64,000 bases of DNA from an uncultured Methanosarcinales archaeon (GCA_964535955.1 CAZHVK010000004.1:6222-70221), one strand, 5' to 3'; counted from the first letter of the stretch, positions 3,383-62,780 are shown. Notes: generated by a model not told the origin, from the letters alone. A program made the numbers and translations.

Positions 3383-3521
3383 ATATCCACCCCCAAACTA
3401 TACTAATTAGTAATACAAACATTTAAATATATATACTTTCTCCATATAGTATATATGCATTATATTGTTACTGAGGAGTATATGTCATTTTTATTTATAA
3501 ATATTTGTAAAATCTTGGTTG

Positions 3522-3627
3522 GTGCAACCCGCCAATTTGGCAAGTGAACCAATATTAAATTCGTAAGAAGATAGTAGGTGCCTCAATAATGTTCGCATCA
3601 AATGAGGCAGGTGAACGAGGGTTGCAC
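3522..3627 (+). ncRNA. GC-rich structured element, divergent member of the repeated multi-hairpin family (see 10296, 18925, 49714)
   Basis: 9-bp closing helix gtgcaaccc/gggttgcac enclosing hairpins gcc-aattt-ggc and tgcctca[17 nt]tgaggca, followed by ggtgaacga. GC about 50% against a roughly 30% background. Ends 30 nt before the ATG at 3657. Confidence 0.35.
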
Positions 3628-3656
3628 TAACGCAGTAAAATCTGGGGGGATTGAAT

Positions 3657-4604
3657 ATGGTAGAATTTAGAAAATTAATTGCATTTGGAAAATCATCTTA
3701 TGTAATCAGTTTACCTAAAAAATGGATAGAGAGGAATAAGTTGGACAAGGGTGATACAATCTTTATCGAGGAGAAATCACACTCACTTACATTAAGAACA
3801 AAACAAGAAGAATCAGATGAATCAAAAAAAGAGATTACAATAAATGTAGACAATGTTCCTCTTGATTATATTAAAAGAAAGATTGTTAGTTCATACATAA
3901 ATAATTACAAGAGCATTAAGATTACAGGAAAGACACTAAAAGATAAATACAGTAAAATAAGGGATTATCTTCACGATCTAATGGCTTTAGAAATTCTTGA
4001 ACAAAGTGCTGATGTAATTGTTGCAAAGGATTTTATTAATATGAATCAAGTTTCTTTGTTAGGTTTTATCAGGAAGATAGACAATATTACAAGATTTATG
4101 ATGAATGATTCAAAAACATCTATTATAGACAATAAATATGAAAATATTTATGAAAGAGATAAAGATGTTAATAGAATTGGTTTCTTAATATATAGGACAA
4201 TTAAATTTGCTTTGATTAATCCTTCTATGTGCAAAAAACTAAATGTTGAACCAGTTGATTTATTATATTATTGGGTCATAACAAAGCAGATAGAATTTAT
4301 AGCTGATGAATGCAAAAGAATTGCAAGAGTTATGAGAGATATTCACATAAATAAACAGTTAAAAGATGAAATAATCAAGATTTATGAACAAATCCAGAAA
4401 TTTTATGCAGATATAATGAAGGCATATTATACAAAGAATGAAGAAGAAGCTTATAAGATTGCTGCTAAAAAGAATGGAATTTTAAAAATAGTTGATGATT
4501 TTAATAAAAAATATCAAAATAAGAAGAATATTCCTGTTTTATGCGATAAATTCAAGAATTTGATTGCTAATATACATATAGCAGGAAGAATGATTTACAC
4601 ATAA
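3657..4604 (+). CDS. Putative transcription regulator: N-terminal AbrB/SpoVT swapped-hairpin domain fused to a PhoU-like domain
   Basis: N-terminus GKSSYVISLPKKWIERNKLDKGDTIFIEE resembles the AbrB/SpoVT DNA-binding motif; the remainder is helical, PhoU-like. ATG at 3657 with a GGGGGG RBS (the track's TTG at 3651 is unlikely). Confidence 0.6.
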   Translation: MVEFRKLIAFGKSSYVISLPKKWIERNKLDKGDTIFIEEKSHSLTLRTKQEESDESKKEITINVDNVPLDYIKRKIVSSYINNYKSIKITGKTLKDKYSKIRDYLHDLMALEILEQSADVIVAKDFINMNQVSLLGFIRKIDNITRFMMNDSKTSIIDNKYENIYERDKDVNRIGFLIYRTIKFALINPSMCKKLNVEPVDLLYYWVITKQIEFIADECKRIARVMRDIHINKQLKDEIIKIYEQIQKFYADIMKAYYTKNEEEAYKIAAKKNGILKIVDDFNKKYQNKKNIPVLCDKFKNLIANIHIAGRMIYT

Positions 4605-8533: not shown

Positions 8534-10228
8534 TCACTTATGAGTAAACCAGAACTTTATTTTTTGTTCTTTATCAGAAATTTCATCTAGCCTACAAAAA
8601 CCAAACCTTTCAAACTGAATAACATTATCAACAGATAAATCACGAATTCCTTGTTCAGCTATGCCATTAACAACAGAAGTATCAGGCATAAAAATCTCAA
8701 CATCAACATGCTCATAATTCTTAGGCAGCCAGTGTATGATCACACCTTTATTCTTAGCATCTTTAAAATCATGATGGTCAGTTGAAACAAATTCAAACCC
8801 ATCACCTTTCTTTATAAAATTAATACAATCCATTAACCTGTGCACCTTTCCAGGAACCAATCTATCATAATCTTGAGAAGAAATCAAAAACTCATAACCA
8901 GTTAAAAAATCACGACAACCTCGTTCTTTAAAACTAGGATGCAGACACATCTCAACATTTTGTTCAGGAGCATTTCTAATAATAATTTCTTTAGGATTAT
9001 AAATAAAAAAATATCTATTAGCAGACCTATCAAGCAATCTACGGTTAAACACACTAAGATCATCAAATGTTAACTCACTCTCAGTTTTATTTATGCCTGT
9101 GGACAAAACAAAGTCCCATATAGCTTTTGGTTGATAACCACGGCGACGTAGAGCAGCCAATGTTGTAAGTCTAGGATCATCCCAACCCATAAATTCACCA
9201 TCCTCAATACCTTGTCTAATTTTTCTTCCTGATGATGGCACACCTTTTAGATTAAACCTTGCAGCTTCATATGTTTTAGTAATTTTTAATCCTAATTTTT
9301 CCTGAATCCATCTTTGCAGTTCTGTCCTCATCTCAAATTCTTTTGTCCTTATTCTAATATCTATCTGTGAATATGAATCCATTATAGCACTTTGAAAATC
9401 ATAATTAGGCCACACCCTGTACTTTCTGCCTAGCCTAGGATGTTCTTTATCAATTATTCTAAAGATGATAGGATCTCTCATTGTAGAATTCTTATGACTA
9501 AGATCAATCTTAAATCTAAGAACTGCTTTTCCCTCATTATAGGTGGAAAATGTTTTCCAAAACTGAAGATTTTCATCAACACCTCTATCACGACATTTGC
9601 AAGGTTCTGATTTCATCCTATTTTCTTTTATTTTTTCTTGTTCACAAAAACACATATATGCTAAACCATTTTTAATCACTTGTTCTGCTTTTTTATAAAA
9701 CATCTCCATATGATCAGATGCATAGATCAGTTTATCCCATGACGCACCTAACCATTTATAATCATAAAGCATCATATCATAAAACTTTTTTATAACAGTA
9801 GCAGGATTGGTATCTTCAAACCTAAGAATAAATTTACCTTTATGTTTTTTAGCAAGTTCATAATTAACAGCCAGTGACTTTGCATGTCCAAGATGTGTAT
9901 ATTTTTCAGGCCCAGGTGGAAATCCAGTTGTTAAAGGACCTTCTGGTAAATTCAAAAACTCGAATATGTCTCTTTCTTTTTTCTCCTTCTTAACTAACAT
10001 TTCAGGTGCAATCTCTTGTAATTTAGCAATCTGATTATCAGGTTTCATAGAATTAACAGTTTTAACAATCCTATTAACTTCTTTACCAATCTCCTTCATC
10101 TGCTTCTTAAGTTCAGTATGATCACCAAGAAGTTTGCCAATTATAGCTCCAGGACTGGCTTTTCCTTTGAACTTGACAGCATTTTGTAATGCGAATTTCA
10201 ATATTAATTCTTCTATCTCTTTTTTCAT
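8534..10228 (-). CDS. gltX: Glutamyl-tRNA synthetase, archaeal/eukaryal type (non-discriminating GluRS likely)
   Basis: Class I catalytic core with HIGH-type motif YTHLGHAKS and GlxRS-like anticodon-binding beta-barrels. Start is the ATG at 10228 (MKKEIEELILKF, RBS AAAGGTG); the track's N-terminal extension to 10414 runs into the structured repeat element. Confidence 0.85.
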   Translation of the reverse strand: MKKEIEELILKFALQNAVKFKGKASPGAIIGKLLGDHTELKKQMKEIGKEVNRIVKTVNSMKPDNQIAKLQEIAPEMLVKKEKKERDIFEFLNLPEGPLTTGFPPGPEKYTHLGHAKSLAVNYELAKKHKGKFILRFEDTNPATVIKKFYDMMLYDYKWLGASWDKLIYASDHMEMFYKKAEQVIKNGLAYMCFCEQEKIKENRMKSEPCKCRDRGVDENLQFWKTFSTYNEGKAVLRFKIDLSHKNSTMRDPIIFRIIDKEHPRLGRKYRVWPNYDFQSAIMDSYSQIDIRIRTKEFEMRTELQRWIQEKLGLKITKTYEAARFNLKGVPSSGRKIRQGIEDGEFMGWDDPRLTTLAALRRRGYQPKAIWDFVLSTGINKTESELTFDDLSVFNRRLLDRSANRYFFIYNPKEIIIRNAPEQNVEMCLHPSFKERGCRDFLTGYEFLISSQDYDRLVPGKVHRLMDCINFIKKGDGFEFVSTDHHDFKDAKNKGVIIHWLPKNYEHVDVEIFMPDTSVVNGIAEQGIRDLSVDNVIQFERFGFCRLDEISDKEQKIKFWFTHK

Positions 10229-10295
10229 TACAACACCTTTTTTTATGATATTAAGAACAAAGAACCCTTTATATATAAATATTGCTACGGGAAGT

Positions 10296-10457
10296 ATGTG
10301 CATGGCGTCCGTCATAAATGCAGAGCATTTATGATCGTGCTCAGAAATGTTCCATTTCTGACATGTAAGACAAGTGAGCACCCCTCTGATTGTCAAAGGA
10401 TCAGGACTTTCCATACAAAACTATTGCACTTGGAAAGTGCGAACGAGCCATGCACAT
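10296..10457 (+). ncRNA. Structured repeat element copy 1 (162 nt): closing helix plus three hairpins; candidate novel ncRNA or structured MITE
   Basis: atgtgcatgg...ccatgcacat closing helix; hairpins tcataaatgc/gcatttatga, gtgctca[cagaaatg-ttc-catttctg]acatgtaagacaagtgagcac, ctttcca/tggaaag, then tgcgaacga. Near-identical architecture at 18925..19087. Confidence 0.5.
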
Positions 10458-10646
10458 GCTCTAACTCTCTAGAAAACACCTTAAAAACTCTCAAAATATA
10501 CTACCAATAAAGAGTAACATTTATAAAGGATAACCCATTCCCTACATAGTATAGCAAAAGAGGTTCTATGATATTAACATAATATATTTGAACATAATAT
10601 ATTAACACAATCAATAATCAATATAAACAGTGCGGGGTGCAATATA

Positions 10647-11234
10647 ATGTTAGGTATTGAACAAAGTTATGAAACAGACATAAAAAACATATTACAATTC
10701 AGAGATCTTTTTGATCAAAACAATCAAATAAAACTTTATGAATTTAGTGAGATTGTAAATTATTTTTTTGACAGATATGTGCATAAATCTTGGGAAAAGC
10801 AAAAACAAACATTTTTTCAAAGAATACAACAAGGAATATCAGACTTCTCAAAAAGCCTTGATCAAAGAATAGATGATTCACTTAACAAGATGAATTGTCC
10901 AAGAGATTTGATCGAAGAGCTTGATAATAATGCATTCTTAGTTAATCTTGAAGCAAGGGGTTATGAATTTCCAGAAGTTGTACAAGAATTAGAAGATAAA
11001 GGTTACATAAACAAGCAAAGAACAGAATTACTCATTGACCAATATCAAAAATACTTAAGATTCGGTGGTTTTTATGATGAGATGAATGCAACTTTTAACA
11101 TGGTCAACACTGCATTAACAGGTGTAAGTGATGTAGATCTCTCTGGAAACCCATCAGAATCAAGAACTAGTATTAGAAATCCAAGAAACAAAAAAGTAAT
11201 TTCAGTAGATTTTAAAAATAAAAGAAAAAAATAA
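10647..11234 (+). CDS. Hypothetical protein (195 aa)
   Basis: Intact ORF, RBS GGGGTG upstream; no motif recognised. Confidence 0.5.
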   Translation: MLGIEQSYETDIKNILQFRDLFDQNNQIKLYEFSEIVNYFFDRYVHKSWEKQKQTFFQRIQQGISDFSKSLDQRIDDSLNKMNCPRDLIEELDNNAFLVNLEARGYEFPEVVQELEDKGYINKQRTELLIDQYQKYLRFGGFYDEMNATFNMVNTALTGVSDVDLSGNPSESRTSIRNPRNKKVISVDFKNKRKK

Positions 11235-11252
11235 AAAGTTTTTTTCTACTTT

Positions 11253-12140
11253 TTATCTAGGGAAACGACCATATGCTACATCCATATCATTTGCAGCTCT
11301 TGCTAATTTTGCAACACCCATAACACATTTATTTTTGGATATGCTTCCATCTTTTTCTATGACAGGGCACAAATAATTTAAATATTTCCCTTGTTTAACC
11401 AATATAAGCAATGTTTCTTTTATATTCAGAATCTCAAGTCTTGTTTGTTTTAAGAATTCTTCAACTTCTGGTGTTTTAGCCATATTCTTAATTGCTTCTG
11501 GTTTTAATTTTGGTGGTTGTGTTAACTTATTAATCAATATTATAACTGCTTTTACCACTTTTTGTGCATTTTTTACAATACTATAATTATAACCACCTGT
11601 TTTTGCTTTTTTTAGGCCAGCTATTATTTTATCCAATTCATCTAATAAATAAATATTTTCACCAACCTTAGGGCCTGATATATTCAACATTGGAAAAGTA
11701 AGATTATAATCCTTAGACATTTTCAATAAATGTCCTAAAAGCCCTTTTAAATCTTTTAATTTATCAATAGTAGGTCCTGGTCCTGTTGCAGCCCAATCAT
11801 CTTTACCAAATTTGGCAATAGCAACACCGATTATAACAGCCCTATTTTTATACAATTTCATCTCATTTAAAAAATTTCCAGCTTTTGCAAGTGCTTCACG
11901 TTCAGCAGCAATATGAACAATATCTTTTTCAATCAATGCAAGAGCTTTTCTTTTCTCATTCCATGCTGTTGCTGCAGCTGCATAACGAGGCCCTTCACTT
12001 TGTGAACCTTCTACATATTTTTTAAACTTTTGCAGATTAAAATGAAATTTTGCAGAAATATTATATCCAGCTTTTAGATTTTTTACACCAATACCTCTTC
12101 TTTTAACCATTGTTGAAACAAAACTTCCAAACCATCCCAT
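11253..12140 (-). CDS. Hypothetical protein (295 aa), last gene of the minus-strand exosome operon
   Basis: Intact ORF downstream of rrp42; no motif recognised. Confidence 0.5.
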   Translation of the reverse strand: MGWFGSFVSTMVKRRGIGVKNLKAGYNISAKFHFNLQKFKKYVEGSQSEGPRYAAAATAWNEKRKALALIEKDIVHIAAEREALAKAGNFLNEMKLYKNRAVIIGVAIAKFGKDDWAATGPGPTIDKLKDLKGLLGHLLKMSKDYNLTFPMLNISGPKVGENIYLLDELDKIIAGLKKAKTGGYNYSIVKNAQKVVKAVIILINKLTQPPKLKPEAIKNMAKTPEVEEFLKQTRLEILNIKETLLILVKQGKYLNYLCPVIEKDGSISKNKCVMGVAKLARAANDMDVAYGRFPR

Positions 12141-18903: not shown

Positions 18904-18924
18904 TTTTTCTTATTTTTATTTAAT

Positions 18925-19087
18925 ATGTGCATGGTGTCCTTCATAAATCGGAGATTTATGATCGTGCTCAGAAATGCTCTGCATTTCTGACATGTAAGAC
19001 CAGTGAGCACATCTCAGATTGTACAACGATCAGGGCTTTCCAAACAAGATAACTAATACATGGAAAGTGCGAACGAACCATGCACAT
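18925..19087 (+). ncRNA. Structured repeat element copy 2 (163 nt), 48 nt upstream of argS on the same strand
   Basis: Same closing helix atgtgcatgg/ccatgcacat and hairpins as copy 1. Loops differ, and one stem carries a compensatory swap (tcataaatc/gatttatga vs tcataaatgc/gcatttatga). Confidence 0.5.
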
Positions 19088-19135
19088 ACCTTTTTTAATA
19101 ACTTTTATAAACACCCAACACTTAACTATCTAAAT

Positions 19136-23221: not shown

Positions 23222-24412
23222 TTATTCAGTATAATGGTCTGTTTTTACTTTTTTACCATCTATATATATATTATTGATTACTTTGAGTCTATTTTGTTTA
23301 TTGCCTTTTTTACCTGGTTTTCCATTACCTTTGACTGGTTTGTCATCATCATCTCTTTCATAATCAGCAATATCTTCAATTGTTTTCCTTACTCCTTGTC
23401 TTGAATCACCAATCTTATCTATTTGGTCATTGTGAAAATCTAATGCACCATCTACTGATCTAAAGTATTTCTTAACTTTTCTTTCAACTTTTTTACCTTC
23501 TCTTGCTACATAAGCATGATCTTTGCTAGTTTCTTTATAACAACTGGTTGCATAACATGAAAGTCCTACTAATAATGCTAATGCTAGTAATCCTGTTCCT
23601 ATTTTTGCTGTTTTATACAAACAAGGATATTGATTTTTGATGTATGCAAAGAGTCCTTTGTTATCTTTATCTTTTTTATCATCATCATTAGGTCTATATG
23701 GTCCAATTGGTCCTGGTAGTCCTTGTTCTCCTTGAATTCCTTGTGGCCCTTGTATTCCTTTTTCTCCAGGCTCTCCGTCCTTACCATCTACTCCAGACTT
23801 ACCATCTACTCCTGGCTTTCCATCTACCCCATGCTTTCCATCTACTCCTTGTTTTCCATCTACCCCTGGCTTTCCATCTTCTCCATCTTTTCCATCTACT
23901 CCATGCTTTCCATCTATTCCAGGTTCCCCTTTTTCTCCAGGTACCCCAGGATTTCCATCTACTCCTGGCTTTCCATCTATTCCAGGCTCTCCATCTTTTC
24001 CATCTGCCCCAGACTTTCCATCTATTCCAGGCTCTCCGTCCTTTCCATCTACTCCAGGTTTTCCATCTTTTCCTTTTTTACCTCTTGGTCCTGTTTTTCC
24101 AGGCTCCCCTTGTTCTCCTTGTGCTCCTGGATCTCCTTTAATACCAATTCTATTAATACCATCTTTATACAAACAAACAACAATTGATCCTAATGAATCA
24201 CGAAGTAATTTTCTATCTTGTAATTTTTTTTCTTTAATAACTTCATTAGCAAAATATTCAGGAACATGTGCTCTTTGAAAGATATCTACTTCATCTTGAG
24301 TAAATAAACCACTATACTTTGGTTGTTTTGTTTGTTTTTTAGAATCATCAATCCATTTATCTACTTTATCATCTAATGCTATTTTAAAATATTCTATTGT
24401 ATCTTCAGTCAT
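23222..24412 (-). CDS. Collagen-like triple-helix repeat membrane protein
   Basis: 50 uninterrupted Gly-X-Y triplets (GIKGDPGAQGEQGEPGKTGPRGKKGKDGKPGVDG...GLPGPIGPY), then a TM helix (LLALALLVGL) and a C-terminal SCYATSCYKETSKDH...DSRQGVRKTIEDIADYER module. Confidence 0.65.
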   Translation of the reverse strand: MTEDTIEYFKIALDDKVDKWIDDSKKQTKQPKYSGLFTQDEVDIFQRAHVPEYFANEVIKEKKLQDRKLLRDSLGSIVVCLYKDGINRIGIKGDPGAQGEQGEPGKTGPRGKKGKDGKPGVDGKDGEPGIDGKSGADGKDGEPGIDGKPGVDGNPGVPGEKGEPGIDGKHGVDGKDGEDGKPGVDGKQGVDGKHGVDGKPGVDGKSGVDGKDGEPGEKGIQGPQGIQGEQGLPGPIGPYRPNDDDKKDKDNKGLFAYIKNQYPCLYKTAKIGTGLLALALLVGLSCYATSCYKETSKDHAYVAREGKKVERKVKKYFRSVDGALDFHNDQIDKIGDSRQGVRKTIEDIADYERDDDDKPVKGNGKPGKKGNKQNRLKVINNIYIDGKKVKTDHYTE

Positions 24413-45595: not shown

Positions 45596-48076
45596 TTATT
45601 TTCCTCTACTATTCAGATCATCAATAAGGTCTACTTCATCTGGAAATTGATCTATATGTGTGTGTTTAGTAGAATCACCACCTAATAATGCGTCAAGTGG
45701 ATCTTGATCATCAATACCAAACAATTGATTCAATTTAGCTTCTTCATCTTGTGTATCTTGTTTTTTGTCTTGTTGTTCTTTTTTATCCAAACCAAAATAA
45801 TGATCTATCTTTTCTTGTGATGGTATATAATCAATTTCTTCTCCAGGCTCTCCTCCAGAAGCTTGAGCCAATTCTTCATTTATTTGATCAATTTCATCCG
45901 GTGTGTATTCTTCTTGTTTTGTTTCTGGCAAATACATTTCAGCTTCTTGTTCTAAGAGTTTTGTCATGCTTTGTTCTTTTTTATCTTCTATTTTCTTATC
46001 TCTTTGTCTTTGTTCAATTAGTTCTTGTGATAATGATTTATCTTTTATTATTGTTGCTGATTGTCTTTTCTTTATTATTAGACCACCCCTTCTCTTGTTT
46101 TCTCTTTCCTCTTCTTCATGCACTGCTTTACTTGACTCAGCAAACTGTTGAAGCAAACTTTGAAAATCATCATCACCATCATCCTCTTCTTCTCTTGCTA
46201 AAAGATTCCCAAAAGGAGAAGAACCTGGACTAAGACAAATAGAATGCAGATCATCTCCATAATCTTCATCATCACAAAAAACACTACTCAAAAAAATACC
46301 ACAAGGATCCATTTTTCCTGGTTCTGTTAATTGATCATCATCTAAACCAGACCCTCCAGACAACATATTTAAAAATTCATCTTCTTCATCAAGAGTAGGA
46401 AATTGTATTCCCTGCGGTTCATCATCACCACCATCATTCCCTTTAACCAATTTTTTATACTGATGCAGATCTTTTCTTAATGCATCCATTTTGTTCATTA
46501 TCTTCCTACTTAAGTGATTTTTTGCATTAATTTTCTTTAATTCACTTAATTCTTTACTCATCTTGTCTACATAATCAAACAAATTACTTTCTTTTGAAGT
46601 TACTCTAAAGCCAAAATTTTCATCAATAACAACTAATTCTCCTCTGTACAAAAGATTGTTTCCACACTTCACTAGAATACTTTGTCCAGCAAGTTGTTCT
46701 AATTTGAATTCAGAACCAATCTCTAGTTGTGAAGCTTGTTTTGAAGTCATATAAGTATGTCCAATTATTGCTCTTAATTCTGTACAAACTGAATTAATCC
46801 TGTCAACTGGTCTTAATTTATGGTCTCTGTCTCTAAAATTGACTATTTTTACTTTAAAATATTCATCTTCAACACCAAGCCTGCATTTACCAAGATACAG
46901 ACCACCTGCATAAATATCAAACTCTTCACCACACAATGTATCTAGTTCAATTACTGCTCCTGTACTAATCTCTTGAAGATCTTGCACAGGTCTTTCACTT
47001 CTTCCTGCTTCTATTTCTATTTTTAATGCTTGGCTACCAAATATTTCTTTATTTATCTTTGTCTTGGTCTCTCTACCATAAAACTTCTTTAAAAAAGGAT
47101 GTATTGGAAAACTCACATTTACAATTCCTTCTCTACAATCTGCTTTTTTAAAATATTCATTTGTTTTTTGTTTAAAGTATTCAATTTTGTCACTAAAAGT
47201 TAATTGTTTTCCTTCTTCATCGCTTTGCCTAATTCTATGTATACCATCACCTAATTTTTCTAAGAATATTCTTTCAATATGGGCAATAGTATCATAATCT
47301 TCCTTGATTTTATCCCAATTTTCTCTAAACACTTTTACAAACTGACAATTCAGCTCATATTCATCATCATCAAAACCAATTCCAACAAGAACCTTATCAA
47401 TATCATCATAATCATCAATCCCTTCTGCAGTTAATTTATCAAAATAATCAATACCAGAAGAATAATTAGTATGACACTGAAACTCATATGTCAATAATAA
47501 GACCATATCATTAGGATTATGTATCACCATCTTAGGATCTGTAAATAATTCAGACATTGTTACTTTTTCTTCTAATTTTATATTCTTAACCAATGTTTCT
47601 AAAAATGTTTTACATGTTTCTGATAATTTAGAATGCATATTTTCTAATCTTTTTGCACTTGTTTTTTCATCAAATGCATATAATGGTGAAAATGTATTTA
47701 CTAATCCTGCATTGAATTCTAAATAACCAGCATATTCTCCAATCTTAAATTCTTGTAGATAAGTAGGATTATTGATACTTCTTATAAATTCTTCATGTGT
47801 GATCTGATCAACACTTACTATGTCTAATCTAGAGACATAGACATTACTATGCTTATTTCTAAATTCTTTTAACATCTCTTTTTCAAAATATTCTCTACTC
47901 TTATTTGATAAATAATCAGATTGTCTTTTTGTAAAAAAATCAGGTCTTTTATAATCATAGATCTTTATTTTTCTATGTTTTACATCTTCTTTCATTTCTT
48001 CATCAGTCTTAAGATCACCTGTCTCAATTGCACTTAACAAAGCATCTATCTCATCTTGACATAGAATTTCAACCAT
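45596..48076 (-). CDS. FliM/FliY-like switch protein: CheY-binding N-terminal peptide plus two FliN/SpoA domains and a long acidic tail
   Basis: N-terminus MVEILCQDEIDALLSAIETGD matches the bacterial FliM/FliY LSQ(D/E)EIDALL peptide. SpoA domains: AVIELDTLCGEEFDIYAGGLYLGKCRLG and LEQLAGQSILVKCGNNLLYRGELVVIDENFGFRVT (compare T. maritima FliN ARGEVVVVDENFGVRIT). Confidence 0.7.
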   Translation of the reverse strand: MVEILCQDEIDALLSAIETGDLKTDEEMKEDVKHRKIKIYDYKRPDFFTKRQSDYLSNKSREYFEKEMLKEFRNKHSNVYVSRLDIVSVDQITHEEFIRSINNPTYLQEFKIGEYAGYLEFNAGLVNTFSPLYAFDEKTSAKRLENMHSKLSETCKTFLETLVKNIKLEEKVTMSELFTDPKMVIHNPNDMVLLLTYEFQCHTNYSSGIDYFDKLTAEGIDDYDDIDKVLVGIGFDDDEYELNCQFVKVFRENWDKIKEDYDTIAHIERIFLEKLGDGIHRIRQSDEEGKQLTFSDKIEYFKQKTNEYFKKADCREGIVNVSFPIHPFLKKFYGRETKTKINKEIFGSQALKIEIEAGRSERPVQDLQEISTGAVIELDTLCGEEFDIYAGGLYLGKCRLGVEDEYFKVKIVNFRDRDHKLRPVDRINSVCTELRAIIGHTYMTSKQASQLEIGSEFKLEQLAGQSILVKCGNNLLYRGELVVIDENFGFRVTSKESNLFDYVDKMSKELSELKKINAKNHLSRKIMNKMDALRKDLHQYKKLVKGNDGGDDEPQGIQFPTLDEEDEFLNMLSGGSGLDDDQLTEPGKMDPCGIFLSSVFCDDEDYGDDLHSICLSPGSSPFGNLLAREEEDDGDDDFQSLLQQFAESSKAVHEEEERENKRRGGLIIKKRQSATIIKDKSLSQELIEQRQRDKKIEDKKEQSMTKLLEQEAEMYLPETKQEEYTPDEIDQINEELAQASGGEPGEEIDYIPSQEKIDHYFGLDKKEQQDKKQDTQDEEAKLNQLFGIDDQDPLDALLGGDSTKHTHIDQFPDEVDLIDDLNSRGK

Positions 48077-49663: not shown

Positions 49664-49713
49664 ATGTTTATTTAATATTATTAGTATATATAAATGTTAC
49701 TATGGTGTGTAGT

Positions 49714-49823
49714 ATGTGTATGGTGTCTGTAAGACTAGTGAGTACCCACATAAATCGTAAGACTACTTGGGCTTTCAATACAATCAGAATAATACATTGA
49801 AAGTACGAACGAACCATACACAT
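49714..49823 (+). ncRNA. Structured repeat element copy 3 (110 nt, 5'-truncated variant)
   Basis: Closing helix atgtgtatgg/ccatacacat (two C-G to T-A compensatory pairs relative to copies 1 and 2); retains gtaagactagtgag, hairpin ctttcaat/attgaaag and gtacgaacgaacc. Confidence 0.4.
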
Positions 49824-49933
49824 ACTGTGTATACATATAATAAATACATGTAGAAACATTTAAATAAAACCTAAAGCCTAAACAAACAATAACAATATAA
49901 AATCATTATAAAACCAACAAAAGGTGATAAACT

Positions 49934-50527: not shown

Positions 50528-53782
<3,255 letters not shown>

Positions 53783-54481: not shown

Positions 54482-56707
54482 TTGAACACAGAATCTATTG
54501 AAATACAAAATAAGAGCAAAGCATTACGAGAATCTCATGGCTTAGAATGGCTTGCTTTTAATCTATCAAAAGAACAACCTGATATAGAACAAAGACTTTC
54601 TCATTTAGACAATGATCCTGAAATAGACATAATAGAAGCATTGGTTGACAGTGGTTATGAACCAATTCTTGAGCCATTTCCAGGAAGCGGAAAGATGAAG
54701 GATTGTTATTTTGTATATCAGGATAAGAATAAAAAGCACAAAAGAGTTGCTGTTATTGATAAACCATTAAAAGATCTTTCTGAAAAATCAAGAAAAAACA
54801 AACAAAAAGGAAATGATGTTGAAAACGAAGGAAATATCTTAAGAAATATTTCAGATCGTAAAGAACATTATATAATTGATTATTATCACAAGATAAAACT
54901 TTCAGATGGCCGTTATATGCATATTATTGAATATTTTCCAGGAGAGCCACTGTTTGATTATGTGAAGAAAAATGGTCCTTTTTCAGCAAAAGGATTTGAA
55001 CAAGTTGCAGACAAACTATTAGTAGCTATAAGTCATGTTTATAATGATGGATATCTGCATAGAGACACTCACACAGGAAATATATTAGTTAGAGAAGATA
55101 AAGATGGATTTGATGCAAGATTAATAGATTTTGGAAATGCATCTGACAAAGAATCTTTAGAACAAAGGCTTTGTAATTCAACAGCAATGTCTTCAATAAT
55201 AGCAATGCCTATTGTTGATCCTTTTACAATCAGTGGTTTAACATCAGAACCAATCAAATATTCTGTTGCATCTGAGCTTTATGCACTAGGTACTGGATTA
55301 TACTATGCTTTAACAGGCAAAGATATTTTTTATTTTAATAAACAAACAGGAGAAGCAAGAGTAAGAAAAACAGATAAAAACTTATTAGATGAAAATGGAT
55401 TGCTTGATATTGAACTTTATGAACAAGAACTTGCTAATGCTTTAGATGATTTACCCAAAGAAGTAAGAAAATATTCAGAAATCTTGTACAAATTATTAAG
55501 TCTAGAAAGCAGGATGGAGAATCCTGAGGAAAATGCTTTTTACAAATCTGTGGATAAGAACAAAGAAAGTATAAACCCTTTTGAAACTCTTATACAGGAA
55601 TATAATGAGATTAAAGATTATGATCCAGATAAATTACAACAAGTATTAGGCAGTGCAATTGATAATACTCATAAATTACAAGATCTTTTAGATCAAAGAA
55701 AACAGATAATCAATAAAGGCAAAGAAAAGAAGTCATTCTTTAGCAGAATCTTAGGTAACAAGTATGCACTTGCAGCAGGAGCAATTGGTTTGATTGGTTT
55801 GCTTGTGTTTGGAAAGGATTATTTAAAGAAAGACAGCCTAGTTTTTGACCACCCGCCTATTGCAGAGGCTTCACAAACAATAACAGAACCAGCAACAGAA
55901 CAGGAAAACAGACCTATAATAGAAGAAAAACAACCAGCACAAGAACAAGAAGAATCAACATTAGAACAAACATTAAATGATCATTATGGTTTACAAGCAA
56001 TGAAACAAAATATTAAAAAACATGCTTATGTTAATACTGGAAAAGGTGATTGGAAATATGTAGATGTTCATAATGGTCTGGATCGTTATCAAGATACAAG
56101 AAATGGCACAATAGTTTTACTTAGTAAGTTTGGTATTGTAGATGATTTTTTCTTTCCAACTGCTGTAAATGAAATAATAACAGATGCTTATATGCATTTG
56201 GATGATCATTCTTGGAGACATGTAGGTAATATACATTTTGAAGAACACGGAAATCTAAACCGTTACCAACATAAGAAAACTGGTAATGTAGTATGTATAA
56301 ATAAACTTGGAATTATAAGAGAATATTTTATTCCAACAGCTGTTGATGAAATAGAATATGATGCTTATATTGATACTAGCAAATCCAGTCATTGGAGATA
56401 TGTAGACAAAATATATTTTGAAGAACATGGCAATTTAGACCGTTATCAAGACAAGGACAATGGTTCTGTAATTTGTATAAATAAACTTGATATTGTAAAA
56501 GAATATTTTATTCCAACAGGTTTTAATGATATAAAATATGATGCTTATATGTGTCTTGACTCTAATGATTGGAAGAATTTGGGTAAGATACAAAGTGAAA
56601 AGCATGGCACTCTAAACCGTTATCAGAATAAAGAAACAGGTACAATAGTCTGTATAAATAGACTTAGCATTTTAAAGGATTTCTTTATACCAACAAGTGT
56701 GAATTAA
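54482..56707 (+). CDS. Hanks-type Ser/Thr protein kinase, TM segment, and four tandem ~58-aa C-terminal repeats
   Basis: Kinase motifs RVAVIDKP (VAIK-like), HRDTHTGNILV (catalytic loop), LIDFGNA (DFG). TM helix ALAAGAIGLIGLLVFG. Repeats contain H-x-G-x-L-x-R-Y-Q and (E/D)(Y/F)F(I/F)PT motifs. TTG start at 54482 with RBS AGGGGTG. Confidence 0.7.
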   Translation: MNTESIEIQNKSKALRESHGLEWLAFNLSKEQPDIEQRLSHLDNDPEIDIIEALVDSGYEPILEPFPGSGKMKDCYFVYQDKNKKHKRVAVIDKPLKDLSEKSRKNKQKGNDVENEGNILRNISDRKEHYIIDYYHKIKLSDGRYMHIIEYFPGEPLFDYVKKNGPFSAKGFEQVADKLLVAISHVYNDGYLHRDTHTGNILVREDKDGFDARLIDFGNASDKESLEQRLCNSTAMSSIIAMPIVDPFTISGLTSEPIKYSVASELYALGTGLYYALTGKDIFYFNKQTGEARVRKTDKNLLDENGLLDIELYEQELANALDDLPKEVRKYSEILYKLLSLESRMENPEENAFYKSVDKNKESINPFETLIQEYNEIKDYDPDKLQQVLGSAIDNTHKLQDLLDQRKQIINKGKEKKSFFSRILGNKYALAAGAIGLIGLLVFGKDYLKKDSLVFDHPPIAEASQTITEPATEQENRPIIEEKQPAQEQEESTLEQTLNDHYGLQAMKQNIKKHAYVNTGKGDWKYVDVHNGLDRYQDTRNGTIVLLSKFGIVDDFFFPTAVNEIITDAYMHLDDHSWRHVGNIHFEEHGNLNRYQHKKTGNVVCINKLGIIREYFIPTAVDEIEYDAYIDTSKSSHWRYVDKIYFEEHGNLDRYQDKDNGSVICINKLDIVKEYFIPTGFNDIKYDAYMCLDSNDWKNLGKIQSEKHGTLNRYQNKETGTIVCINRLSILKDFFIPTSVN

Positions 56708-57621
56708 CTCTTTATAATACCAATCAAACTACCACTGCAGTGATAAAACATTCTTATAACATTTATCAAATAATGAATTACTTGTTTTTCATTATCTTTT
56801 TTAGAATCCAGACATTTCATGCCTAACTTGAATGCAAATTTATTCTCAATACTGTGTATGTCCTGCACAATGTTTGTGTCTTTTGTAACATATAATTTAT
56901 GCAATTTGTCTAATTCTTCTTTTGCAGCACTTAAAAACTTTTTAATATCTTTGTTCATATTTATTTTCCTGTCATGAACATGATTATTAAGAAACCCAAG
57001 ATTTCTTCCTGCAAGTGTGATATGTGACAAAAACAACCAATAAATAGGTGCTAGTTTGGTAGAAAATAAACCTTTTGAAATACACCTTCTCAGGAAATTA
57101 GCATATTTATGAACACTCCTAACAAGTTCTTCTACTTCTCTGAATTCTTGTTTATTTCTTTTTATGATGTTTTTTTCTAAGATTCTCATTATCTCTTTTA
57201 AAATAAAAAACTCTTTATTGATTATGTTATTAAAATTATCAATGCTTGGTTCTGTTATTGATTCTATAACATATTCCTTATCAGAACGGGATCTTACATC
57301 AAAACCAATGATTGCTGTTTCAACAATCTTTTTCACTGTCTTTATTACATTTTTATTTTCAAACCTGATCGTGATCTTGTCATATCCTTGTCTATAAAGG
57401 TTTGCAATAAACCTGCTGATCAAGCTTTTCTCAGCAATTGGTATGTCTATCACTATTTCTTGTTTTTGTTTCTTTTTTTTTGAATCTATTATTAATTTAT
57501 TATGTTCTTCATCAACCTCTACTTCATCTCCTGCTTTTAAACCAATCTTATCAATCCACTTCTTTGGAACATAGATTGTTAAGCCTCCTCCTCCGCCTTG
57601 TCTTATTAATTTTCTTTTCAT
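56704..57621 (-). CDS. AbrB/SpoVT-PhoU-like regulator (paralog of 3657..4604)
   Basis: N-terminus GLTIYVPKKWIDKIGLKAGDEVEVDEE parallels SYVISLPKKWIERNKLDKGDTIFIEE; helical C-terminal domain. Confidence 0.6.
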   Translation of the reverse strand: MKRKLIRQGGGGGLTIYVPKKWIDKIGLKAGDEVEVDEEHNKLIIDSKKKKQKQEIVIDIPIAEKSLISRFIANLYRQGYDKITIRFENKNVIKTVKKIVETAIIGFDVRSRSDKEYVIESITEPSIDNFNNIINKEFFILKEIMRILEKNIIKRNKQEFREVEELVRSVHKYANFLRRCISKGLFSTKLAPIYWLFLSHITLAGRNLGFLNNHVHDRKINMNKDIKKFLSAAKEELDKLHKLYVTKDTNIVQDIHSIENKFAFKLGMKCLDSKKDNEKQVIHYLINVIRMFYHCSGSLIGIIKS

Positions 57622-60683: not shown

Positions 60684-62780
60684 ATGAAATACAGAAAAAC
60701 ATTAGGAACTGCAATTTCATTGCTAGCTGCACCTTTTTTATATTTTGCACAGCCAGCAAAAGCAGATACTTTTGATAAAGTAGTTTCAAAAAGCAATAAA
60801 GAATTCCAACAAAGTTTACAAAAAAGTAACAAAGAGTTTGATGAAAGATTGCAACAAAGTAACAAAGATTTTGAACAAGGATTGCAAAAGAGTGAACAAG
60901 AATTCCAAAAAAAATTAGAACAAAGTGACAAACAATACCAAGAACAATTACAAAAAAGTGAAAAAGAATTTGATGAACATTTAGAAAAAAGTAATAAAGA
61001 ATTTGAACAAGCTTTAAAAAAAAGCAATCTAAGATTTAAACAAGGACTTGAAAATACAAGAAAAAGGTTTGATGAAAAAATATATAATTTTCATAAAGAA
61101 TCGCAAGATGAGATCTCTGACTTAGAAAAAAAAATAAACACAAAACCTTTACCAGAAACATTTTATTATAATAACAATAGATATACACGTGTTCCACTAA
61201 AAAGATTAACAAAACCAGTAAGAAAAAAGACCACAATAAGAACAAGACCAAATAACAGAACAAATTCAACAAAAAACAGAAACACAACAACAAGAACTAA
61301 TAGATACAATCTACAACAGCAATTCAAGAAATTCAAACAATCATTAGACACAATCCTTGACAATGATGTAAAACCTTTATTTTCTACAGAAGAAGCATAT
61401 TCTTATTTCACACAACCAAGAGTCGGTGAAAAGAACAAAGTAGAGTTTGCAAAACAAGTGCACGATAAGTACAGCAAGGTATGGGCAAACAAGATGCACC
61501 AAGGTTTTCCATTGTTCAGTGCAGAGGATATCATACAATTATATAATCTAGGTAATGTTGATGACTTTTTTGCACACACAGACAAATTACTTGAATACAG
61601 ACCAGAACAAAACCAAGGAAATCCTTTTTTTCATGATGGTGAACAAATAATAAGATCTTATTTGAATAAAATGCCAGAAGAATTTATTGATGGTTGGATG
61701 AAAGTGATGGATAGATTGAATTTTGACTGTAAATTCTTAAACACAGCATGGGAATCAGGATTACATGCAGACAGTTACCTTGTAACAAAAGCATTAGCAT
61801 TAGGAGATGATAATGGCAGTCCTCTTTATAACAGGTATAATAAAGATGCACAAAGTTTGTTAGAACTGCATCAATTAGGTGCAAAAGCTGATATATTTGA
61901 TTTTTTTTCCCAGTTTAAGAGTGATAAAGGTTATTTTTTATTCAGACCACAGAGGATAAAAGAGATTGTAAAAAAAGGTTTTGACCTTGATGATGATTAT
62001 ATAAAACAATTACTAGAACTAGAACAAAGAAACAAAGAAAAACTTACAATAGGAGACATAGAAAGCGCAGCAGTAATCAAGAGCATGAATAATCCAAACT
62101 ATGTTTCATCATTATACAAGATCTTTAAAGAACAAGGAATTGATTACAAACTAAGTCTAGCAAAGATCAAAAGATATTGTCAATTAAACTTACCATTAAG
62201 AGACATCTTCTTTTATGACACAAGAAAACCAAATGCAGTGATTGTATTACCAACATCAGATCATAATGAGGCTTTTTATGGAGAATCTGGCAGAGATTTT
62301 ATCAAGTCTTTATTAAGACAATATGATGCACAGATAATAATTGCAGACACAGAACAAGATGTATATACTGGGTTAGACTATGTTCCAGATGTTTTGCTGA
62401 CAACCATCTCAGGCCATGGAACTCAAAAAACATTGTCATTAGGAGAAGCAGACCTAAGAATATATACAGGATCTGGTGACGAGACAAGGACTATTGACAC
62501 TTCTGATGTAGAATTATTATCTTATCTAAAAAAAACACACCCTAGGTCAGTTGTTTTATTAAGATCATGCCTAAATGGCAAAGGAAGACAGTATGAAGAA
62601 AACCTTGCTAATTTTACAGCAAAGTCAGGAAGAAAAGTCATCTCAGGAGATGATATTGCTAACAGAACAGAGATCACTTCATTATTTCCTTTTGACGCAG
62701 AAGTTTATCATCACGACAAAGAAACAGGAAGATACAGAAGAATTACATATAAGCCAGAGATTGGAGGAAAAATACAATGA
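60684..62780 (+). CDS. Secreted repeat protein with C-terminal His/Cys (clan CD, caspase/CHAT-like) putative peptidase domain
   Basis: Signal peptide LLAAPFLYFAQPAKA; about 8 x 11-aa SNKEF(Q/E)QxLQK repeats; basic N/T/R-rich linker; C-terminal TISGHGTQ ... VLLRSCLNGKG consistent with a His-Gly / Cys catalytic dyad arrangement. Confidence 0.55.
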   Translation: MKYRKTLGTAISLLAAPFLYFAQPAKADTFDKVVSKSNKEFQQSLQKSNKEFDERLQQSNKDFEQGLQKSEQEFQKKLEQSDKQYQEQLQKSEKEFDEHLEKSNKEFEQALKKSNLRFKQGLENTRKRFDEKIYNFHKESQDEISDLEKKINTKPLPETFYYNNNRYTRVPLKRLTKPVRKKTTIRTRPNNRTNSTKNRNTTTRTNRYNLQQQFKKFKQSLDTILDNDVKPLFSTEEAYSYFTQPRVGEKNKVEFAKQVHDKYSKVWANKMHQGFPLFSAEDIIQLYNLGNVDDFFAHTDKLLEYRPEQNQGNPFFHDGEQIIRSYLNKMPEEFIDGWMKVMDRLNFDCKFLNTAWESGLHADSYLVTKALALGDDNGSPLYNRYNKDAQSLLELHQLGAKADIFDFFSQFKSDKGYFLFRPQRIKEIVKKGFDLDDDYIKQLLELEQRNKEKLTIGDIESAAVIKSMNNPNYVSSLYKIFKEQGIDYKLSLAKIKRYCQLNLPLRDIFFYDTRKPNAVIVLPTSDHNEAFYGESGRDFIKSLLRQYDAQIIIADTEQDVYTGLDYVPDVLLTTISGHGTQKTLSLGEADLRIYTGSGDETRTIDTSDVELLSYLKKTHPRSVVLLRSCLNGKGRQYEENLANFTAKSGRKVISGDDIANRTEITSLFPFDAEVYHHDKETGRYRRITYKPEIGGKIQ

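Follow-up and report, generated by a model that had tools for sequence, protein, structure and literature searches.

A divergent copy of a structured, apparently insertion-prone element family upstream of an AbrB-PhoU gene in a DPANN archaeon

The locus considered here lies in a stretch of archaeal DNA of 64,000 nucleotides (GCA_964535955.1 CAZHVK010000004.1:6222-70221), which was analysed as a whole and is referred to as the window. An intergenic region separates a 49-aa gene on the minus strand from an AbrB/MazE-PhoU gene on the plus strand, and it holds, 5' of the latter gene, an element of 114 nt that is called the focal element below. Table 1 lists its parts, the signals around it and the related copies. 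The PhoU-like and ArgRS homologs carry Woesearchaeota or Nanoarchaeota labels from their sources, and the host is therefore taken to be a DPANN archaeon of the Woesearchaeota/Nanoarchaeota type. The genomes of DPANN archaea are very small and have little DNA to spare, and to our knowledge almost nothing is known about their non-coding RNAs.

Upstream of the element, the intergenic region also contains an A/T-rich block at 3421-3470 of the form CATTTAAATATATATAC..TCC.TATAGTATATATRCA, with the inverted arms TATATATAC/GTATATATR. This block is found as well in four related loci (L030 at 9903-9950, L013, L033 and L035) and is nearly invariant in the five genomes, while the identity of the PhoU proteins is only 42-49%. 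It probably serves as a bidirectional promoter combined with an operator for the AbrB-type regulator.

Elsewhere in the window, the minus strand carries an 826-aa ORF (45596-48076) with FliM and FliN C-ring domains (Pfam E 1e-25), which are bacterial flagellar switch domains and unexpected in a DPANN archaeon. Also on the minus strand is a GyrB gene (50528-53779) that contains an intein of ~420 aa, in which there is a weak trace of HNH; the GyrB of a relative (L036) also carries an intein. In addition, ORFs at 23694-24109, 56035-56727 and 60757-61085 include long in-frame tandem repeats, whose periods are 18 nt, ~177 nt and 33 nt respectively, so that their products should be repetitive, low-complexity proteins.

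Table 1. Positions of the focal element, its parts, the neighbouring signals and the other family members, in window coordinates except for L005, which is given in the coordinates of its own locus
Feature	Position	Strand	Remarks
TATA-like box TTTATAAATA	3495..3504	+	~23 nt upstream of P1; aligns with the TATA-like box of L030
9-bp direct repeat GTAAAATCT, upstream copy	3507..3515	+	flanks the focal element; candidate target-site duplication
Focal element, divergent member of the structured family	3518..3631	+	R1 59.3 bits, R2 107.7 bits, MFE z = -6.1
P1 5' strand (GUUGGUGCAACCC)	3518..3530	+	pairs with 3619-3631; one G.U pair
P2 hairpin GCCA-AUU-UGGC	3531..3541	+	GUCU-GUA-AGAC in other members; compensatory U-A to C-G change
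Junction motif AGUGA	3543..3547	+	invariant; once per member (5/5), same structural position
P3 5' strand (ACC)	3548..3550	+	pairs with 3610-3612 (GGU)
Variable P4 region including the UUC-GUAA-GAA hairpin	3551..3578	+	MFE fold
P5 hairpin, 7-bp stem UGCCUCA/UGAGGCA, 17-nt loop	3579..3609	+	strands 3579-3585 and 3603-3609; model match, MFE fold
Junction motif GAACGA	3613..3618	+	invariant; directly adjoins the P1 3' strand
P1 3' strand (GGGUUGCACUAAC)	3619..3631	+	pairs with 3518-3530; model match, MFE fold
9-bp direct repeat GTAAAATCT, downstream copy	3635..3643	+	flanks the focal element
Shine-Dalgarno-like GGGGGG and ATG (3657)	3644..3659	+	AbrB/MazE-PhoU gene 3657-4604
Family copy c1	10294..10459	+	166 nt; 56-nt two-hairpin insertion in the P2 loop; 107.6 bits
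Family copy c2	18923..19089	+	167 nt; same insertion as c1; 111.3 bits
Family copy c3	49712..49825	+	114-nt core form; 128.4 bits
Outside member L005	3213-3327	-	MAG CAZYAB01; R1 60.2 bits

A sequence-only reading had described the region as a GC-rich structured island and a probable divergent member of a repeat family. The island is clear, since 3522-3627 has a G+C content of 44.3% against 29.7% for the whole window, while the value falls short of the roughly 50% that had been given. The closing helix gtgcaaccc/gggttgcac is there and, at 13 bp, is longer than described (3518-3530 with 3619-3631); the tgcctca/tgaggca hairpin is found at 3579-3585 and 3603-3609, followed by GGU-GAACGA (3610-3618) and then by the closing strand. 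The distance of 30 nt to the downstream gene holds when counted from 3627 to the ATG at 3657, and 25 nt lie between the boundary at 3631 and the ATG. On the whole, the observation is confirmed as real. The 114 nt have an MFE of -41.9 kcal/mol, compared with -23.5 ± 3.0 for 200 dinucleotide shuffles, none of which folds as well (0/200; z = -6.1). In this fold P1 and P2 are contiguous with no nucleotide between them, the distance from AGUGA to GAACGA is 65 nt, and the P5 loop (3586-3602) holds a small UUCG-capped stem. Counting the outer TG...CA along with the 13 bp of the P1 arms, the ends are inverted over 15 of 16 nt. The element is present in all strain-level variants of this species, with a single-base difference that falls at the innermost P1 pair.

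The seed motif GTGNGAACGA leads to three related elements on the plus strand of the window, namely c1, c2 and c3. We built a covariance model, R1, from the aligned c1-c3 only, with the 56-nt P2-loop insertion of c1 and c2 taken out, and scanned the whole window with the filters off. R1 matches the focal element in full length (model positions 1-113) at 59.3 bits and E ~1.7e-12, with all 27 modelled pairs canonical, while the next-best unrelated match in the window scores 11 bits. In total five members are known, four in the window and one, L005, in a related MAG; a further model, R2, is made from all five (focal, c1, c2, c3 and L005). The likeness in 3' architecture noticed before is real and is part of a full-length match. 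The end-to-end match at 59.3 bits passes the check that the sequence-only reading had proposed, a search with a family model; it comes from a model to which the focal copy made no contribution, which supports the reading of it as a family member. The description as divergent is also accurate, because the focal copy shares 56-59% identity with the other members, the family copies overall being 56-83% identical. The members are ~110-170 nt long and GC enriched (37-45%) in a genome of 30% GC.

The defining property of the family is a conserved three-way-junction fold, in which P1 encloses the P2 hairpin and an arm of P3, P4 and P5. All members show the same order, that is, P1, P2, one nucleotide, AGUGA, P3, P4, P5, P3', GAACGA and P1', with GAACGA adjoining P1 and with 63-66 nt between AGUGA and GAACGA in 5/5 members. 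The sequences of the helices vary around this constant scaffold. The 13 bp of P1 occur in three unrelated sequences among the five members, with 11 of the 13 pairs changed on both sides; the P2 hairpin is GUCU-GUA-AGAC in most members and GCCA-AUU-UGGC in the focal copy; P3 appears as GCA/UGC, GUA/UAC, ACC/GGU and GCC/GGC, all three pairs changing on both sides; and in P5, a stem of 7-8 bp, 6 of 7 pairs do so. The P5 loop keeps a length of 16-18 nt with no conservation of sequence, while the P4 loop begins with GU(A/C)A, and in the alignment the motif YGUMAA recurs in all members. In the structural alignment of the five members 97.8% of the cells form standard pairs and 22 of the 27 pairs change on both sides, although the alignment was fitted to the model and these pairing and covariation figures are somewhat inflated. 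None of 500 column shuffles matches any of the observed pairing measures, and sliding the partners by 1-3 columns lowers the pairing to 24-44%. Moreover, inspection of the sequences alone shows three or four unrelated versions of each of P1, P3 and P5, all perfectly complementary. The two junction motifs could themselves pair (A.G, G-C, U-A, G.A, A.G) and so extend P3. As for the strand, P1 contains G.U pairs on the plus strand in both c1 and the focal copy; the folding energy gives no strand call, the focal copy favouring plus and c3 and L005 slightly favouring the antisense strand.

The insertion in c1 and c2 (10310-10365 and 18939-18994) consists of two near-duplicate 9-bp hairpins in the P2 loop. 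The hairpins, TCAtAAATG..CATTTaTGA and TCAgAAATG..CATTTcTGA, differ by a compensatory pair, which points to modular growth of the element by hairpin duplication.

Comparison of the PhoU locus with related genomes bears on the origin of the focal copy. L030 keeps the upstream order of the window (MetRS, two common small genes, the 49-aa minus-strand gene and the PhoU-like gene), and it belongs to the same MAG as L005, which carries a family member elsewhere. In L013 and L035 all that is kept of this order is the small minus-strand gene beside PhoU, and L033 is the same intergenic region in another assembly, in which the small minus-strand gene is not called. The 49-aa(-)/PhoU(+) intergenic regions of all four align with that of the window on both sides and are without ~128 nt, which exist only in the window, between the TATA-like box (3495-3504) and the GGGGGG Shine-Dalgarno. 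Conserved in the alignment are the promoter/operator block (~3421-3470, nearly invariant), the Shine-Dalgarno and the ATG. The sequence-only reading had named missing conservation in related genomes among the things that would refute it, and taken literally this is the case, the orthologous PhoU-upstream regions of four relatives being without the element. This absence points to an insertion here and not to a conserved PhoU-specific leader, and membership in the family is not thereby refuted. Such a presence/absence difference in conserved synteny offers clean and direct comparative evidence for regarding the focal copy as an insertion.

The flanks suggest the same. The 9-mer GTAAAATCT occurs three times in the window, both strands counted, and two of the three flank the focal element; the empirical P for a direct repeat of at least 9 bp in the 20-nt flanks is 0.0056, as estimated with exact repeats around 114-nt segments sampled at 7-nt steps through the window. 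The termini immediately within the repeats read TG...CA. The 9-bp repeat is apparently a target duplication that arose from the insertion of the focal copy.

The other members stand before quite different genes. Downstream of the five are a PhoU-like gene, an ORFan (c1) and genes for ArgRS (c2), a DUF4190 protein (c3) and a DUF11-like protein (L005), which are unrelated to each other, and four of the five members sit between divergently transcribed genes. In c1, c3 and the focal copy P1 is preceded at ~23-28 nt by an A/T-rich TATA-like box. Immediately after c2 comes a run of T6 and then a separate TATA box for the ArgRS gene; this box is conserved in the relative L155, whose ArgRS is 72% identical, and the site of c2 is occupied there by unrelated sequence. 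The syntenic L030 lacks the segment that holds c1, and its exosome operon ends with GluRS. Beside c1, between the exosome operon and GluRS, 10647-12140 holds a 195-aa ORFan, found only in this species, and a 295-aa gene without a family match; this stretch, c1 included, is an inserted segment specific to the lineage. A search for a protein linked to the family finds neighbours that are unrelated or ORFans, and no matches in Pfam, PHROG or NCBIfam. As to flanking repeats, the focal copy has 9 bp (P 0.0056), c2 and c3 have 6-7 bp (P ~0.13), L005 has 5 bp and c1 has none. The ORFs scanned around the copies contain no transposase, integrase or reverse transcriptase domain, and no solo ends of the element are seen in the window. 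In our best reading, the family is dispersed and insertion-prone in the manner of MITEs, its copies lying in promoter-bearing intergenic regions without positional conservation.

The distribution of the family is narrow. The pattern GTAAGACNAGTGAG-N(50-75)-CGAACGA, derived from c1-c3, gives six matches in 185,579 species-representative genomes, of which only L005 is real. The same exact pattern has 16 matches in the JGI metagenome collection and the 5' motif has 110 in IMG/VR viral contigs, none of them real. All these patterns, being derived from c1-c3, would miss variants like the focal copy. R1 and R2 find no new member over ~230 kb of DPANN loci, which were collected through PhoU-like, ArgRS and window-edge proteins and include the regions just outside the window as well as the PhoU and ArgRS ortholog loci. 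The copy density is therefore four in ~75 kb here, at least one in the relative and none detected elsewhere in the searched sets, and as far as could be searched the family seems limited to the host archaeon and one related MAG. That MAG, CAZYAB01 (GCA_964645705.1; loci L005 and L030), is labelled 'uncultured Methanosarcinales archaeon' in its record; with ~30% GC and a gene order in common with the Woesearchaeota-type window, this taxonomic label looks wrong. The contig of L155 (1-100) opens with GCACAT, which are the final bases of the P1 3' strand in the family; ~95 nt of unrelated, moderately GC-rich sequence come next, then the conserved ArgRS TATA box, and it is possible that an element is truncated there at the contig edge.

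Taking these results together, we hold with middling confidence that the family is a lineage-restricted, insertion-prone (MITE-like) structured RNA module, co-transcribed at the PhoU locus as the 5' leader of an mRNA. The focal copy would have been inserted upstream of the AbrB-PhoU gene, separating its Shine-Dalgarno from a TATA-like box already present, and the box, a putative promoter by the archaeal promoter consensus, would drive plus-strand transcription of the element from ~23 nt upstream. Between the focal element and the ATG there is neither a T-run nor a separate promoter-like sequence, so the PhoU gene is most likely transcribed through the element, which would then form the 5'-terminal, autonomously folding leader of the PhoU-like mRNA. 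In the predicted fold of 3516-3700 the element folds in the same way and stays closed while the SD and AUG are open, and such an autonomous fold with unpaired SD/AUG makes a switch mechanism unlikely. Selection on the fold presumably acts at the level of RNA, the element being a stable module that binds protein or serves as a scaffold. Its effect at the PhoU locus would be that of a stable structure at the 5' terminus of the mRNA, affecting stability; alternatively, the module may be processed out as a stable small RNA or RNP. A 5'-terminal stabilising structure or a processed sRNA/RNP is more plausible than a ligand-responsive switch.

Some points weigh against the mobile leader module that we prefer. 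We infer expression, RNA ends and the transcribed strand from sequence. The members are five, from two genomes, and their pair counts come from a model-fitted alignment. A convincing flanking repeat is found at the focal copy only, and a single transposase would be expected to leave target duplications of fixed length, which is not seen among the copies. Nor is there a transposase, integrase or reverse transcriptase near any copy, and recently active MITEs are nearly identical, unlike copies of 56-83% identity. The P1 arms differ fully between subfamilies, which fits poorly with a single transposase that recognises terminal inverted repeats.

It is possible, though on the doubtful side, that the members are instead independently transcribed genes for trans-acting sRNAs, which were duplicated and moved by rearrangement, the focal copy merely sharing the PhoU promoter. 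Strong covariation and invariant junction strands, as signs of long-term selection on an RNA fold, agree with this, and so do the TATA-like boxes ~23-28 nt before P1 in c1, c3 and the focal copy, the T6 run and separate ArgRS promoter directly behind c2, and the age of the copies (56-83% identity) with no transposase nearby. TATA-like strings are, however, common in intergenic DNA of 20% GC. At the focal copy, moreover, the presence/absence difference in perfectly conserved local synteny, together with the 9-bp flanking repeat, resembles insertion and not rearrangement; and because neither a T-run nor a separate promoter follows this copy, it cannot form a self-contained gene at this site.

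The insertion-like features could also belong to a MITE or palindrome acting purely at the DNA level, with P1 as terminal inverted repeats, hairpins that serve transposition (for example as single-stranded DNA) and no RNA role. Terminal inverted arms, the 9-bp flanking repeat and the TG...CA ends of the focal copy, the lack of coding capacity, the dispersal in intergenic DNA, the presence/absence difference from relatives and the similar folding energy on both strands, as for a DNA palindrome, are all as such an element would have them. Yet we consider it unlikely, because P1 keeps its pairing and not its sequence, and a transposase would require ends of conserved sequence. Invariance is confined to the unpaired junction strands with their fixed spacing, P1 of c1 and of the focal copy has G.U pairs on the plus strand, and the copies are few and old with no cognate transposase seen.

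A bolder extension of the mobile leader module, to which we give a slim chance, is a class of mobile structured RNAs new to DPANN archaea. Here the three-way junction with AGUGA and GAACGA would be the active core of a ribozyme or RNP, P1 and the P5 loop would be programmable, and insertion near transcription starts would be self-driven, either RNA-dependent or protein-assisted, so that host promoters drive the element.

Membership in a known class by divergence, whether an L7Ae/K-turn RNP RNA (C/D, H/ACA), a small self-cleaving ribozyme, a tRNA- or 5S-like RNA or attC, appears very improbable. The three-way junction, with UGA before and GAA after P3, copies the tandem G.A extension of hammerhead stem II and of K-turns, and a variable P5 loop of 16-18 nt on a constant scaffold is reminiscent of guide RNAs. 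Against these likenesses, Rfam 15 at gathering thresholds has no hit in the whole window (5S rRNA, RNase P, SRP, T-box, Hgc/SscA and small ribozymes included), and at E < 10 the four members searched (focal, c1, c3 and L005) have only chance matches with no family recurring. In the focal region these are two, both upstream of the element, and of the hammerhead, C/D and H/ACA models only a eukaryotic H/ACA snoRNA model gives a weak match, to the antisense strand of L005, at half its gathering score. ARAGORN reports no tRNA or tmRNA gene in the window and the T-loop GTTCRA is in no member; with 5S absent from the Rfam hits as well, the earlier statement that the structure is neither tRNA nor 5S rRNA stands. 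Box C/D sRNAs were rejected on the lack of RUGAUGA in any member and of CUGA in the focal copy and c3. For the type III hammerhead, CUGANGA is in no member, and contiguous P1 and P2 leave no unpaired cleavage-site nucleotide; for the integron attC, no member has an exact R'' RYYYAAC or R' GTTRRRY box, and the neighbours are housekeeping genes; for guide RNAs, no complement to any P5 loop is found within the window. The weakest alternative, a cis-regulatory leader (riboswitch, protein-binding operator or attenuator) specific to the AbrB-PhoU gene, has in its favour the position 25 nt upstream of the ATG, on the coding strand and behind the sole TATA-like box, as well as a highly ordered fold with a conserved junction, but it retains next to no probability, being largely refuted by the four orthologous PhoU-upstream regions without the element, with paralogs that precede unrelated genes, a 13-bp P1 that seems too stable for a switching helix, no alternative SD/AUG pairing and no terminator.

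The family thus combines 22 of 27 covarying pairs, counted from five sequences, with an invariant junction and no Rfam family. If the fold acts as RNA, it would be a new archaeal RNA class; if it is mobile, the PhoU locus would be a compact case of a host gene gaining a structured 5' leader by insertion. With R1, R2 and the explicit descriptor at hand, a wider survey is straightforward.

We finally compare the element with known systems; a literature search on structured or small RNAs of DPANN/Woesearchaeota and on archaeal MITE RNAs found nothing relevant. In the element GA stands before the 5' strand of P3 and GAA-C-GA after its 3' strand, which recalls K-turns and k-junctions; the extra C departs from the standard motif, and the element does not have the 3-nt bulge directly followed by GA that is standard in K-turns. 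It resembles the type III hammerhead in three helices around a junction and in having ...UGA 5' and GAA... 3' of P3, as with the tandem sheared G.A near hammerhead stem II and in K-turns; it differs in having N-AGUGA for CUGANGA and GAACGA for GAAA, and no hammerhead, C/D or H/ACA model of Rfam reaches its gathering threshold. Riboswitches and other aptamer leaders share the place in a 5' leader, the P1-closed junction with conserved unpaired nucleotides and the variable stems, whereas the element is not conserved before orthologs, has paralogs before unrelated genes and no expression platform, and its 13-bp P1 is very stable.

Two further systems come closer. GC-content screens by Klein, Misulovin and Eddy in 2002 reportedly revealed ncRNA islands of the HgcA-G and SscA type in AT-rich archaea. 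The element is likewise GC-enriched, structured and intergenic, with an upstream TATA-like box, and it differs in that no Rfam model of those families matches it, that it is multi-copy in one genome and that it shows an insertion difference from syntenic relatives. Structured repeats of MITE type are known in bacteria, such as Correia/NEMIS of Neisseria, BOX and RUP of pneumococci, and ERIC/REP. Compared with these, the element differs in that its terminal arms covary and are not sequence-conserved, in that conservation lies inside it, in a three-way junction whose two invariant single-strand motifs keep a fixed spacing, and in being low-copy and old, in a DPANN host, with inconsistent target-duplication length and no cognate transposase seen. 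It is like them in being small (~100-170 nt), non-coding and dispersed in promoter-proximal intergenic DNA, with inverted arms at the termini by which a transcript would fold into a long hairpin, probable co-transcription with a neighbouring gene and, at the focal copy, an apparent flanking target duplication; the two extra hairpins of c1 and c2 are modular length variants comparable to boxB modules. By analogy, the Correia, BOX and RUP repeats and the GC-rich ncRNA islands of archaea may be regarded as its closest functional counterparts.
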